From: a virus
Taxonomy: Duplodnaviria; Heunggongvirae; Uroviricota; Caudoviricetes
Reading direction: 5' to 3' (one strand)
Virus record (IMG/VR): IMGVR_UViG_2778261231_000002
Span: 1-45,127 of that record
DNA length: 45,127 bases
Part shown: positions 5,057 through 45,127 of the stretch, piece by piece
Numbering within the stretch: the first letter of the stretch is position 1
How the letters are laid out: each line of letters opens with the position of its first letter
Position numbers and translations under genes: made by a program
The notes under the pieces: generated by a model
Seen by the model: the letters and a program-made list of their open reading frames with translations, nothing else
What the model was told of the DNA's origin: nothing
Database searches by the model: none

Positions 5057-5317
5057 ATAGACCTCCTGATGAACTTTGGTGGTGTGGTGGCTGGTAGTCT
5101 AGCTCCAGCTTGTTGAGTCTCATTCGGAGGGGTATAACCGGCACCCCAGTGATTTTTCCATGCGACAACGTGCGCGTTATGGCGGCCTTATCGCCCGCGG
5201 CTCCCCATCTCGTCCACGCTATTGCTAGCGTTGGGAGCGCTTCACCGCTCAACAGTAGGTAAGCACTTGCCAGTGACTAGCTGGCTTCACCACACCCCAA
5301 AGTTCACTTTGGTTATT

Positions 5318-5332: not shown

Positions 5333-5404
5333 CGTAGATTCATATTCGAATCGTTGTATATTCACCGCCCTGGTGAGTAGTGCGTCCTGCTGATGGGCAA
5401 ACTT

Positions 5405-5460
5405 TATCGGAATGATAAATTAATGGCAATAGCAAAATGATAAATTCTTTTGATTTTCAA
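5405..5460. promoter_or_regulatory. OL operator/pL region with repeated ATGATAAAT motif
   Basis: Motif at 5412-5420 and 5437-5445 plus inverted half-site; same motif recurs at OR. Confidence 0.45.
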
Positions 5461-6783: not shown

Positions 6784-7488
6784 TCACGAACTTTTCAGCC
6801 ACTCCCTTGCCTCGATGTCATCCAGATGGCGAGATTGCTTCAGAATACCAGCCACATACTCCACCTTTGCTACTTGATGATAAGGCAACGTTATTGGCCT
6901 GTGGTCTTGGTTGATGCTTGTAAATTGGTATTCTCCATCTCTGTCATAGCCAAGAACCTTAATCATGTTGTGTCCTTCAACGGTTCTGACAAACACCTCA
7001 TCACCCGGGAATACTTTGGTGTTAGGCTCAATGAGTACATATTCTCCTGATTTTATTCTAGGCCACATGCTGTCTCCTTTCACACGAAGGCCAAAGGCAT
7101 CTGGATCATCGCTATAAATTTTGAGCCACCCATCGCGCTCTTCGGTCATCTCGATGGCACCATCAACACCAAGAATTGCCTCACCAACCACGCGCACTAA
7201 CCCTTTTCTTACCTGACCGACAAAAGTTAAAGAATCTGAGCATGATGCAATTGGTGTTACATCATGTACCAAATCAAGCCACCCATTAGGTAACCCAAGT
7301 GCGGCTTCAAATTTTCTTGCTAGTTTATCCCCTATGTTTCGAGTGCTTTTTTCACCGGAGACTTGCGTGAGTTGAGAAGGGCTAACCCCAAGCTTATCGG
7401 CAAAGCTTGCATTAGTGTTACCCGCGATTTTTTTATGCTCATCTAGCAAAAACGCCAGATTCGATTTGCGAATATCTTTGTTTTCCAT
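6784..7488 (-). CDS. cI: CI-type repressor (HTH plus S24 LexA-like peptidase)
   Basis: N-terminal HTH; C-terminal GDSMWP with downstream Lys, typical autocleavage domain. Confidence 0.85.
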   Translation of the reverse strand: MENKDIRKSNLAFLLDEHKKIAGNTNASFADKLGVSPSQLTQVSGEKSTRNIGDKLARKFEAALGLPNGWLDLVHDVTPIASCSDSLTFVGQVRKGLVRVVGEAILGVDGAIEMTEERDGWLKIYSDDPDAFGLRVKGDSMWPRIKSGEYVLIEPNTKVFPGDEVFVRTVEGHNMIKVLGYDRDGEYQFTSINQDHRPITLPYHQVAKVEYVAGILKQSRHLDDIEAREWLKSS

Positions 7489-7499
7489 CTCACAATTCT

Positions 7500-7600
7500 C
7501 CCTCTATTTAGCAAATGGATAAATACGCAATATGATAAATTTACATTGCGGTTGATTTATCAAAATGGTAAAGTTATTCTGTATGATAAACGGAGGCACT
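7500..7600. promoter_or_regulatory. OR operator region (pRM/pR) with ATGATAAAT-type sites
   Basis: Sites at 7516-7524, 7532-7540, 7583-7591 and inverted copy near 7553-7560, between divergent cI and cro. Confidence 0.5.
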
Positions 7601-14371: not shown

Positions 14372-14446
14372 GGGTCAGTCGTATAAAGGTCATTACGGAA
14401 GGCTGTTAACCTTCTTATCGTGGTTCGAGTCCACGCTGTCCCGCCA
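14372..14446 (+). tRNA. tRNA-Asn (anticodon GTT), one acceptor mismatch
   Basis: Hand-folded cloverleaf: loop CTGTTAA, T-loop GGTTCGAGTCC, CCA end. Confidence 0.5.
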
Positions 14447-14451
14447 AACAT

Positions 14452-14527
14452 GCTGGTTTAGCTCCAATGGTAGAGCGGTCGCCTTGTAAGCGAATGGGTA
14501 GCGGTTCAAGTCCGTTAACCAGCACCA
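14452..14527 (+). tRNA. tRNA-Thr (anticodon TGT)
   Basis: 76-nt cloverleaf folded by hand: acceptor GCTGGTT/AACCAGC, D-stem GCTC/GAGC, loop CTTGTAA, CCA. Confidence 0.6.
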
Positions 14528-26127: not shown

Positions 26128-26503
26128 TGTGACGGACGTACTTTTTGACCCCGATTTTTGCGACTTCAACCTGTGGGTAACGCGTCGCGTGCAAACGGTG
26201 GACGATGACGGGATCGGCAGCGACAGTGAAGTTAAAACGCAGTTTGCCGGAGACGTAACTGTTGATCGCTCTCTGGAAAACCGTCGTATGCAGGCCGGGC
26301 AGGTTATCAGCGGCGCGATTCTCATCGTGACAACTGAGCGGCTGACGCAGGGGCAGACTGGCCGTGATGCCGATATCGTGACGTATCAGAACCGTGATTA
26401 TCGCGTGACATTCGTCGACCCGTATACGGCTTACGGTGCTGGCTTCGTCCAGGCTCATTGTGAATTACTGCCGTTTGATGGGGGAACTCCCATTGAGCAA
26501 TAA
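26114..26503 (+). CDS. hypothetical virion protein
   Basis: 129-aa ORF. Confidence 0.35.
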   Translation: MPNLDVTDVLFDPDFCDFNLWVTRRVQTVDDDGIGSDSEVKTQFAGDVTVDRSLENRRMQAGQVISGAILIVTTERLTQGQTGRDADIVTYQNRDYRVTFVDPYTAYGAGFVQAHCELLPFDGGTPIEQ

Positions 26504-39474: not shown

Positions 39475-39520
39475 ATTCGTAATGCGAAGGTCGTAGGTTC
39501 GACTCCTATTATCGGCACCA
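39475..39520 (+). other. att core: 46-bp 3' end of tRNA-Thr (thrW-like), not a full tRNA
   Basis: Anticodon loop TTCGTAA onward, T-arm GGTTCGACTCC, acceptor TATCGGC+A+CCA; no matching 5' half upstream. Confidence 0.55.
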
Positions 39521-42216: not shown

Positions 42217-42600
42217 GCCCCCGTAGGGGCGGTTAGTTTCTCCACAAAACAGAGAAGAACACCTGCGGTGGCAGCCGCCCGGATGGATTGGGTTATGAGC
42301 CCGTCGTCCGGTGATGCTCTTCTCTGTTTTGTAAAAAGAGCGGTACCAGCCGGAAGCAAGTGTACAAACTGGTACCGCGAGGACTACACACAGCATAAAG
42401 TTGTGGTGCCGGGTGCCTCCCGGTGCCTGGCGAAGGTTGCACACCAGGCGGGTGGGTATCCACAGAAGGTCGACTGTCAGCCTCAACCTTAACCCGCGTG
42501 CGCTGAGCCGCATTCACCACAACGCTAAGGATTCTCTCTGGTTGAAAATACTTAGCTGTTATGTGCCTGCTTTTAGCCACATCAGGCGAGGTGGACCTAG
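42217..42600. ncRNA. candidate structured non-coding region (strand and function unknown)
   Basis: GC-rich, no credible ORF; 15-bp perfect inverted repeat 42244-42258/42318-42332, 10-bp inverted repeat 42340-42349/42369-42378, hairpin 42217-42230. Confidence 0.25.
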
Positions 42601-43291: not shown

Positions 43292-43477
43292 GTTATCAGT
43301 TACTTGTTGATGGGGACCAGATTGTTAAAGAGCTAAGCGTCCTGTAGGGCGCTTTTTTGTTGCTAACGAATCATCCTGGACTTCATATGCCCCAGGCGGC
43401 TACTTCGTGGGCGTCCTGCCTGTTCGTTGTTTCGCTTGGGTACATTATGTATCTCAAAGGTACATTGTCAAGTATAA

Positions 43478-43500
43478 AAAAACCTGCCGAAGCAGGTTCA
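43478..43500 (-). terminator. rho-independent terminator after repressor B
   Basis: Minus-strand hairpin CCTGCTTCGGCAGG then T7. Confidence 0.55.
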
Positions 43501-43510
43501 TAAACATTGA

Positions 43511-44185
43511 TTAGGCTTTGATTTTGTATCTTCTTGGTTTTCCTGAGAAAATCACTGTACCAATTATAGAGCAATTACCGTTGATCTTAATGTAAGGCTC
43601 AGGCCAGTTTGGGTTTAACGCTTTGAGATAACGCTGTGTCCCATCTTCTATCAACCTTTTGAAGGTGGTTTCACCTGTATCGTGCATCAATGCAATAACG
43701 TCGTCACCGTGGCAGGCAGGTACTTCAGGATCGACAAAAATCATGTCTCCCGGGCGGTACTCATCAATCATTGAATCACCTATCACCCGCAAGATATAAG
43801 TCATTTCCCCACAGGGTACAGGGCAGGGATACGTTTCTGCTGTGCTCAAATCAACCTCAGAATATCCAACTTCTTTCCATGCTCCGGCCTGTACCCATGA
43901 TATGACAGGGACTAATGTGATTTGTTTATTAGTGATTGAAACATCAGGTTTTTTTGTGATGTTCGTTGTCTGGTGTTCTTGATCGAGCCATCCGACAGGC
44001 AGGTCGAAACATTTTTCGATGTGTCGTGCCATGCTGTCACCGATATTTTTAGTAGCACCATCTCCCATAAACCTGCTGGTCTGGGTTGGCTCGCGATCAA
44101 TCATAGTGGCAAAGGAAGAATTCCCGCCAACACCATCTCTCAGTTTTCTGGCGTTAGACCGCCGGATGTCATGGATTGTTTTCAT
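43511..44185 (-). CDS. second CI-type repressor (HTH plus S24 peptidase)
   Basis: GDSM active-site motif; N-terminal HTH. Confidence 0.8.
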   Translation of the reverse strand: MKTIHDIRRSNARKLRDGVGGNSSFATMIDREPTQTSRFMGDGATKNIGDSMARHIEKCFDLPVGWLDQEHQTTNITKKPDVSITNKQITLVPVISWVQAGAWKEVGYSEVDLSTAETYPCPVPCGEMTYILRVIGDSMIDEYRPGDMIFVDPEVPACHGDDVIALMHDTGETTFKRLIEDGTQRYLKALNPNWPEPYIKINGNCSIIGTVIFSGKPRRYKIKA

Positions 44186-44200
44186 AACGAAATTAAAACC

Positions 44201-44273
44201 CTTGTACCGTTAAGGTACAAGTATCTTGAAGGTTCATTTCAATCATGTAATATGTACACCGGAGGTACATATT
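44201..44273. promoter_or_regulatory. operator palindromes between repressor B and cro-like gene
   Basis: CTTGTACC-GTTAA-GGTACAAG at 44201-44221; AATATGTAC-ACCGGAG-GTACATATT at 44249-44273. Confidence 0.5.
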
Positions 44274-44275
44274 GT

Positions 44276-44476
44276 ATGAAAGCGTATTGGGACTCTTTAA
44301 CCAAAGAACAGCAGGGCGAGTTGGCCGGAAAAGTTGGCTCAACACCTGGCTACTTACGGCTGGTTTTCAATGGCTATAAAAAAGCCAGTTTTGTGCTGGC
44401 TAAAAAACTTGAGCAATGCACGTCAGGTGCAATTACGAAATCTGACTTAAGACCGGATATCTATCCGAAAGATTAG
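44276..44476 (+). CDS. Cro-like HTH protein
   Basis: 66 aa; GGAGG RBS; divergent from repressor B. Confidence 0.55.
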   Translation: MKAYWDSLTKEQQGELAGKVGSTPGYLRLVFNGYKKASFVLAKKLEQCTSGAITKSDLRPDIYPKD

Positions 44477-44507
44477 CAGAACACTTTCAATTTTTAACCA
44501 CAGAACG

Positions 44508-45071
44508 ATGAGGCTAATCGTGGGTAAGCATCACTGGAAAATAGAAAAACAGCCTGAGTGGTACGTGAAAGCTGTCAGAAAAACTATCGCGGCGTTGCCG
44601 GGTGGTTACGCTGAAGCGGCTGACTGGCTCGATGTAACAGAAAACGCTTTATTCAACCGCCTTCGTGCAGATGGCGATCAGATTTTCCCGCTGGGATGGG
44701 CAATGGTTTTACAGCGTGCTGGTGGCACTCACTTCATTGCTGATGCTGTGGCGCAGTCTGCAAATGGCGTCTTTGTGTCTCTTCCTGACGTCGAGGATGT
44801 GGACAACGCCGATATCAACCAACGCCTGCTGGAGGTCATTGAACAGATCGGCAGTTATTCAAAACAGATTCGTTCAGCAATTGAAGACGGTGTAGTGGAA
44901 CCGCATGAGAAGACAGCAATTAACGACGAGTTGTACCTCTCAATTTCGAAGCTGCAGGAGCATGCAGCACTGGTCTACAAAATTTTTTGCATTTCAGAAA
45001 GTAATGACGCCCGCGAGTGTGCAGCTCCGGGCGCCGTGGCGTGTCGTGACTGTGGAGAAACTAACGCATGA
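44508..45071 (+). CDS. putative early regulatory protein (YdaT/CII-like)
   Basis: 187-aa ORF directly after cro-like gene. Confidence 0.35.
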   Translation: MRLIVGKHHWKIEKQPEWYVKAVRKTIAALPGGYAEAADWLDVTENALFNRLRADGDQIFPLGWAMVLQRAGGTHFIADAVAQSANGVFVSLPDVEDVDNADINQRLLEVIEQIGSYSKQIRSAIEDGVVEPHEKTAINDELYLSISKLQEHAALVYKIFCISESNDARECAAPGAVACRDCGETNA

Positions 45072-45127
45072 ACAGTTTAACAACACACTACCGTCGCTCG
45101 CAACTGATTGCGCTTCCTGTACCGGGT

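Follow-up and report, generated by a model that had tools for sequence, protein, structure and literature searches.

Does the viral DNA studied here carry a second phage immunity region that works independently of the first? The question is raised by a stretch of 45,127 nucleotides from a member of the Caudoviricetes (IMG/VR record IMGVR_UViG_2778261231_000002; the whole stretch is called the window below). Near its right end, a first-pass annotation had placed a second immunity region, that of element B, in tandem with an element A that has an immunity region of its own. Positions 43428-45071 of the window very probably form the lambdoid immunity region, or genetic switch, of a prophage of the e14/SfV/SfIV type integrated at thrW. 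The data supported its reading as a second, self-contained immunity region, in which a pair of left operators (OL) lies on a leftward promoter (PL) past the 3' end of the repressor gene. The feature is already known and ordinary, a common and catalogued immunity type, and the earlier finding is correct but not new.

Genes of the immunity region

The gene order was that of lambdoid phages, with cI on the minus strand, a 90-bp spacer, a divergent cro gene on the plus strand and then a cII-like gene on the plus strand. The cI gene (43511-44185, minus strand) encodes a protein of 224 amino acids, whose C-terminal part matched the Pfam family Peptidase_S24 (E=1.5e-26) and which belongs to the PHROG family phrog_4, 'transcriptional repressor' (E=1.7e-49). 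Its amino acid sequence was 100% identical to that of YmfK from the e14 element of E. coli K-12 and to that of the cI protein of the plaque-forming phage Ayreon. The cro gene (44276-44476, plus strand) encodes 66 amino acids, identical to SfV Cro and one residue away from K-12 YmfT; it matched phrog_35, 'transcriptional repressor' (E=3e-15), while its matches to YdaS and HTH_3 were weak. The own CI-type repressor and cro-like gene claimed for element B were therefore both present. The third gene (44508-45071, plus strand; 187 amino acids) is a cII-like activator gene of the YmfL family, which matched Pfam Phage_CP76 (E=1.4e-13) and phrog_101, 'CII-like transcriptional activator' (E=2e-70).

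We also aligned the cI protein with the solved chains of lambda CI. The segments VQA100-G101AW, GDS138M and FK176RL fell on the lambda motifs of A111-G112, S149 and K192, respectively. In lambda CI, the cleavage and catalytic residues are the counterparts of Ala100-Gly101, Ser138 and Lys176 here, so the sequence gave no sign of the inactivation that the first-pass annotation had allowed for; the protein also has its full length and does not differ from YmfK or the Ayreon cI. The repressor looks active.

Operators and promoters

Two palindromes were found in the cI-cro spacer, CTTGTACC-GTTAA-GGTACAAG at 44201-44221 and ATATGTAC-ACCGGAG-GTACATAT at 44250-44272. The heptamer GGTACAT was present at 43439-43445 and again at 43459-43465, directly past the terminator of the repressor gene. 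The predicted operator unit that underlies all of these is a 17-mer, TGTAYC-N5-GGTACA, with half-sites of 6 bp and a spacer of 5 nt, which occurs three times at the right operator (OR) and twice at OL. A repeat finder independently grouped the same five 17-mers (OL2, OL1, OR-a, OR-b and OR-c). The two palindromes and the repeats of the first-pass annotation were thus present, both palindromes in the 90-bp spacer, but the actual count is five 17-mers rather than two palindromes plus repeats.

The predicted sites differed in their fit to the consensus. OR-a (44203-44219; TGTACC-GTTAA-GGTACA) had no mismatch, whereas OL1 (43448-43464; TGTATC-TCAAA-GGTACA) and OR-c (44253-44269; TGTACA-CCGGA-GGTACA) each had one, and the weaker OL2 (43428-43444; TGTTTC-GCTTG-GGTACA) had two. 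The fifth site, OR-b (44220-44236; AGTATC-TTGAA-GGTTCA), was the weakest. When the whole window was searched for TGTACC-N5-GGTACA with at most two mismatches, 6 matches were found where 0.8 were expected, a number that none of 100 shuffled sequences reached, and 4 of the 6 fell inside the two control regions. A position weight matrix (PWM) was trained solely on OR-a and OL1 of the orthologous loci of other species and was used to rank 45,111 positions of the window. The five sites took ranks 1 to 5, in the order OR-a, OL1, OR-c, OL2 and OR-b, with scores of 25.4, 22.8, 15.6, 12.7 and 10.2. The sixth-best match to this matrix, TTTCCCCACAGGGTACA (43804-43820, plus strand; score 9.2), lies within the cI coding sequence and is probably due to chance.

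The conservation of the sites was examined with one genome per species, in which the repressor was found at 73-100% identity in many genera of the Enterobacterales, including Pseudocitrobacter, Klebsiella, Atlantibacter, Leclercia, Phytobacter, Enterobacter, Pantoea, Trabulsiella, Kluyvera, Limnobaculum, Rahnella and Edwardsiella. With two further loci from the phages yong2 (Hafnia) and EPP-1 (Edwardsiella), alignments of 20 loci were obtained. The half-sites TGTACC and GGTACA of OR-a and OL1 were invariant over all 20, but the five central bases occurred in 17 forms at each site, so that the information content was about 2 bits per half-site position and 0.1-0.5 bits in the spacer. OR-c was also conserved in the orthologues, and the Shine-Dalgarno sequence of cro lies within its spacer. 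Invariant arms with free spacers, at several places linked to promoters, are the signature of a dimeric DNA-binding protein and not of an RNA hairpin.

The five sites were then placed on the promoters. PL, on the minus strand, has the -35 hexamer TTGACA (43466-43471), invariant in the orthologues, and the -10 hexamer CATAAT (43444-43449), invariant in the 20 orthologous loci; the promoter scan gave it 11 of 12 matches to the sigma-70 consensus, a spacer of 16 nt and a predicted start near 43437. OL1 fills the spacer of PL and OL2 covers its predicted start, and the GGTACAT repeats noted earlier past the 3' end of the repressor gene are therefore the OL sites on PL.

The promoter of the repressor gene (PRM) was placed from the start of its transcript. 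Differential RNA sequencing has shown that the ymfK mRNA of K-12 is leaderless (PMC4681348). Since the DNA here is identical to that of K-12, with a conserved TnTAAT (44197-44192) that lies 6-7 nt upstream of the ATG, the cI mRNA is taken to be leaderless here too. Its first nucleotide would be the A of the start codon (44185), and its -10 hexamer TTTAAT would be at 44192-44197 (minus strand). The orthologues have the consensus ATTA.A at a fixed distance from the cI ATG. It follows from the leaderless start that OR-a covers the spacer and the -35 region of PRM and that OR-b is centred near -43 from the PRM start. On the plus strand, the rightward promoter (PR) was read from the sequence, with an inferred -35 hexamer TTGAAG (44226-44231), of which CTTG is conserved in the orthologues, and an inferred -10 hexamer TAATAT (44248-44253), where the orthologues have TAATAT or CATAAT. 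OR-b lies over the -35 hexamer of PR, and OR-c covers its predicted start (about 44258-44261) together with the cro Shine-Dalgarno sequence. An intrinsic terminator of the cI transcript was found at 43480-43499 (minus strand), where the terminator scan gave an 8-bp stem followed by a T-run; its stem covaries among the orthologues, and the terminator is annotated in the GenBank records of SfV and Ayreon. With the divergent cI/cro pair, the cII-like gene, the OR sites and the OL pair on PL all in place, the claim of a second immunity region was borne out.

A proposed model of the switch

We propose the following scheme. CI, identical to YmfK, would be made from the leaderless mRNA initiated at PRM, and its dimers would bind the 17-bp TGTAYC-N5-GGTACA operators through an N-terminal helix-turn-helix domain. 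On OR-c and OR-b, CI would block PR, from which cro, the cII-like gene and the replication genes would be transcribed; on OL1 and OL2, it would block PL, the source of the early-left operon towards int. The position of OR-a on the core promoter PRM suggests negative autoregulation by CI and a shut-off of cI by Cro. DNA damage would lead to RecA-stimulated self-cleavage at Ala100-Gly101, carried out by the Ser138/Lys176 dyad, and repression would be lifted in this SOS induction. The gene identities, the intact catalytic residues, the five sites with their conservation, the match of PL to the consensus and the leaderless start of ymfK in K-12 are shown directly, whereas the pairing of CI and Cro with these sites, the order in which they would be occupied, a possible activation from OR-b, the SOS induction and the immunity specificity with respect to element A are parts of the scheme that we infer.

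Several observations weigh against this scheme or weaken parts of it. OR-b (AGTAYC-TTGNN-GGTTCA) is conserved in the orthologues, but its overlap with the -35 hexamer of PR makes this conservation ambiguous, and in the orthologues of OL2 the conservation is limited to the right half-site GGTACA, so that the operator status of both sites is weaker. OR-a and OR-b abut, and their centres are 17 bp apart, compared with about 24 bp in lambda; because of this spacing, lambda-style cooperativity between the two is doubtful. PR has just 8 of 12 matches to the consensus, below the threshold of the promoter scan, which missed it. In the repressor, the predicted N-terminal helix-turn-helix had no Pfam match at E<0.01. 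Residues 1-76 matched the N-terminus of PDB entry 5d50, 'Repressor' (E=0.0018), and the PHROG repressor N-terminal families phrog_12107 and phrog_5736 (E=1e-11 to 1e-13), which are weak or indirect matches as far as a helix-turn-helix is concerned. In the accessible literature, which was searched for experimental operator data on SfV, SfIV, e14 and YmfK, binding, footprinting or immunity data for this repressor were not found; YmfK is still labelled a 'putative repressor' there, and the papers that mention ymfK name no binding sites.

Instead of being operators of this repressor, the palindromes might be inverted repeats that arose by chance, RNA hairpins, terminators or binding sites of a host factor. 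One result pointed in this direction, since in the terminator scan the minus strand of the OR-a palindrome resembled a hairpin with a T-run. However, the arms are invariant and do not covary, the same half-site recurs five times and always in one of the two promoter regions that flank cI, the spacers are free to vary as they would be under a dimeric DNA-binding protein, and the motif count exceeded that of every shuffled sequence. An RNA hairpin inside the promoter of a leaderless gene would also have no transcript to act on. The OR-a palindrome was rejected as a terminator on the grounds of its invariant, non-covarying arms and the lack of a transcript across this promoter, and we regard a non-operator origin of the five sites as extremely improbable.

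Relation to the immunity of element A

The repressor gene of element A (6784-7488, minus strand) encodes a protein 32% identical to the repressor of element B, and the repressors and Cro proteins of the two elements are homologous by PHROG family (phrog_4 and phrog_35). Element A has the immunity of the mEp506/BP-4795/Stx1a-Stx2a-phage type, with predicted operators TTTATC-N5-GATAAA at 5403-5419, 5428-5444, 7507-7523, 7556-7572 and 7574-7590. The operators of element B had been described as distinct from these. Their sequences do differ, but the layout of 6-5-6 is the same and 4 of the 6 half-site bases are common to both (TTTATC and TGTAYC). Judging by these motifs, elements A and B are likely hetero-immune. 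Because the operator families are related and the repressors homologous, this is no more than a reasonable inference. The co-residence of the two elements is by itself no evidence of hetero-immunity, because the B type itself is present up to three times in some genomes.

Hetero-immunity could be incomplete, such that one repressor partly represses the other phage. In both elements the sites are 17 bp long, with half-sites of 6 bp and a spacer of 5 nt, the B variant TGTATC is one base from the TTTATC of A, OL1 of element B matches the A consensus with 3 mismatches, the A site at 7556-7572 is the best non-B match of the B matrix save the one inside cI, and the repressors have the identity and the shared families given above. 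Yet position 2 of the half-site is an invariant G in the B-type sites over 20 loci (2.0 bits) and a T in every A site. Under the B matrix, no A site scores above 7.3, and the scores of the B sites are 10.2-25.4. The putative recognition segment is REPTQTSRF in B, where it is invariant in most orthologues, and VSPSQLTQV in A. A-type sites were not found in the control regions of B, nor B-type sites in those of A. Stx1a and Stx2a phages carry the A-type immunity and Stx2c phages the B-type, and these phages coexist in O157 strains, which also counts against partial cross-immunity. A partial cross-repression between A and B is thus unlikely.

Other features of element A differed from those of element B. 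The repressor of A has the serine motif GDSM, but its linker is without Ala-Gly, and the LexA-like segment RVVGEA has Val-Gly instead; because of this replacement, its RecA-dependent inducibility may differ. The PL leader of A carries, near 5255-5270 (minus strand), the segment GCGCUGACAAAGCGC, which we take to be identical to the nutL boxB of phage P22. Element A thus has a presumed P22-type boxB (GCGCTGACAAAGCGC) where B has the structured RNA described below, and N-dependent antitermination in A would be implied if this identity holds. The first early-left gene of element B is not N-like. Genes for tRNA-Asn(GTT) and tRNA-Thr(TGT) were also seen in element A at 14372-14527 (plus strand), with the Q-like region on one side and the lysis genes on the other.

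Completeness of element B and its junction with element A

The window ends at 45127, which is 56 bp past the cII-like gene, and no replication or late genes of element B are within view. The immunity region could be intact and element B still be a defective remnant like e14, in which the switch would do no more than silence leftover early genes (ymfM and other SOS-inducible division inhibitors, for instance). In favour of this, e14 of K-12, the archetypal carrier of the identical repressor, is cryptic, with fused or pseudogenised replication and terminase genes; the visible part of B stops short of any such gene, and its early-left arm is without the DUF2303 and YfdP genes of some relatives. 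On the other hand, the visible part of B shows no damage, since int (387 amino acids with a full Phage_integrase domain), the early-left open reading frames, cI, cro and the cII-like gene are all intact. The module is present at 98-99.5% identity in the plaque-forming phages PhiR29, SfIV, SfV and Ayreon (about 94-96% for Ayreon in the DNA comparison). Five contigs that encode an identical cII-like protein run on into replication, Q, lysis and terminase genes, and E. coli GDSC2BY4G and the contigs with the identical cII-like protein extend through these into portal and head genes. We consider it possible, though on this evidence rather doubtful, that B is a remnant of this kind.

The junction between the two elements was also analyzed. 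Positions 39476-39520 of the window are the 3' part of a tRNA-Thr gene (thrW, which adjoins proA), and in E. coli 210221272 the match to element B begins within the thrW tRNA. In the window, a P arm (about 39250-39473) downstream of the tail-fibre assembly gene of A replaces the 5' half of the tRNA. This P arm is common to IMG/VR phages that continue into A-like early genes, and two contigs with the junction of tail-fibre gene and P arm have another integrase. The segment 39250-39535 is thus the P-O-P' (attP-like) joint of tandem prophages, made up of the P arm, the thrW core (the 3' 46 bp of the tRNA-Thr gene) and the int of B. Among the complete E. coli genomes of the collection, the exact A-B pairing was not found, but a tandem of P22-like and B-like prophages with the same joint was present in three genomes. 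In E. coli GDSC2BY4G, the same int-to-immunity module stands in tandem behind a P22-like prophage, and the B-like prophage there is complete.

In the early-left arm of B, a match to the small RNA STnc100 (Rfam RF02076; 49.1 bits, gathering score 47) was seen at 42331-42553 (minus strand). In related prophages, this locus overlaps a 'frameshifted hypothetical protein' pseudogene of RefSeq, and HK639 has a copy too.

A structured leader RNA behind PL

The PL transcript starts with a structured leader RNA of about 62 nt (43366-43427, minus strand), which a covariance model matched at 43357-43434 with 96.5 bits. The 50 bp left of OL2 are common to many hetero-immune phages, among others SfII, ST64B, mEp237, ZF40 and YeP1-3. 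More than 120 IMG/VR contigs contain the core of the leader, preceded by promoter and operator sequences of about 44 types, with palindromic operators in those inspected. The leader RNA does not belong to the immunity specificity; it is the place where the immunity module has its left mosaic boundary. Promoter-like -35 and -10 hexamers upstream of the core scored at least 9 of 12 in 64 of 102 contexts. Helix P1 most often lay 13-16 nt from the -10 hexamer (53 of 102 contexts), and in the window P1 lies about 10 nt past the predicted PL start.

Helices P1 and P2 covary over 47 distinct variants, in which compensatory changes are abundant; the fraction of paired cells was 95.9%, compared with 76% for shuffles and 19-47% for slid controls. 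The structure was seen by comparative analysis alone, and single-sequence folding of the PL leader did not rise above shuffles (z=0.29). The covariance model found exactly one copy per locus of the SfV/e14 type, including unannotated DNA 5' of ymfJ in the e14 element of K-12, and no second copy on the PR side. The leader of element A is without this RNA and has only the short motif GCAGGACGC in common with it. A search of the region against Rfam gave nothing at E<=1; Rfam holds no put family, and this negative says little.

The RNA resembles the put sites of HK022 and HK639 in being a structured RNA of about 60-70 nt immediately 3' of PL, again in phages that have no obvious N gene. However, the sequence similarity is limited to short motifs, the PR-side copy is missing here, and the fold is a closed junction with the enclosing helix P1 rather than two tandem stem-loops. 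The leader RNA was rejected as a put of HK022 or HK639, since blastn-short found nothing and the covariance model had no match in either put region. Its place next to the promoter, in phages that lack an obvious N gene, leads us to speculate about a put-like role. Tentatively, the RNA may be an undescribed class of cis-acting early leader, possibly a put-like, protein-independent processive antiterminator for the N-less phages of the SfV/e14 type, and possibly also a recombination joint for swaps of immunity modules; we hold this to be possible but far from established.

Just past the leader RNA, a hairpin (43335-43354) was seen in the PL transcript; it pairs better on the plus strand, where it reads as a terminator. 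The segment that comes next in the PL transcript, GCUCUUUAACAA (43333-43322, minus strand), is presumably a match to the rrn-type boxA, and the order of hairpin and then boxA is that of rrn leaders and opposite to that of lambda nut.

Known relatives and distribution

The DNA identity of the region was 98-99.5% with the phages PhiR29, PhiR49, SfIV and SfV; with Ayreon, cdtI, 2H10 and several Stx2c-converting phages it was about 94-96%. Across the three genes (cI, cro and the cII-like gene), all of these phages fell within 93-99.5%. Small base differences in the operator spacers distinguish the SfV/SfIV/PhiR/Ayreon group from the region here, and the flanking early-left genes differ through mosaicism. 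The 'putative operator region' of the SfV GenBank record (26377-26445) maps to 44202-44270 of the window, that is, OR-a through OR-c, and the Ayreon record has a promoter and a terminator annotated at the positions of PL and the cI terminator. SfV has an integrase and a thrW core of the same type as element B. The e14 element (ymfK/cohE, ymfT/croE and ymfL) has the same DNA throughout the cI-cro spacer (100% identity to the ymfK-ymfT spacer) and likewise has OL and PL, the terminator and the leader RNA. It differs in its attachment site and its integrase (intE) and is defective, whereas element B is a prophage at thrW with an integrase of the SfV/P22 type. The immunity-specific 1045 bp were present at >=95% identity in 1324 of 5426 complete E. 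coli genomes, with up to three copies per genome.

The region shares with lambda the divergent cI and cro genes, the 17-bp, partially symmetric operators on PR, PRM and PL, a leaderless cI from PRM and a C-terminal S24 domain of CI with the Ala-Gly site and the Ser/Lys dyad. It differs from lambda in the operator sequence, in having just two recognisable OL sites, and in that its best consensus site lies on PRM and not on PR. The spacing is different too, with OR-a and OR-b abutting (17 bp between centres) and the centres of OR-b and OR-c 33 bp apart. OL is only about 750 bp from OR, and no N gene adjoins PL.

Significance

The finding itself changes little, in that it confirms two tandem lambdoid prophages at thrW with different immunity types and assigns the second of them to the very common e14/SfV immunity group. 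For YmfK of K-12, still listed as a 'putative repressor', it provides an explicit, comparatively supported operator consensus and a promoter map. It predicts that this prophage would be homo-immune with e14, SfV, SfIV and the Stx2c phages. Since the operators of A and B are closely related, they offer a useful natural pair for work on the divergence of repressor specificity. The leader RNA is the sole part that could open a new question.

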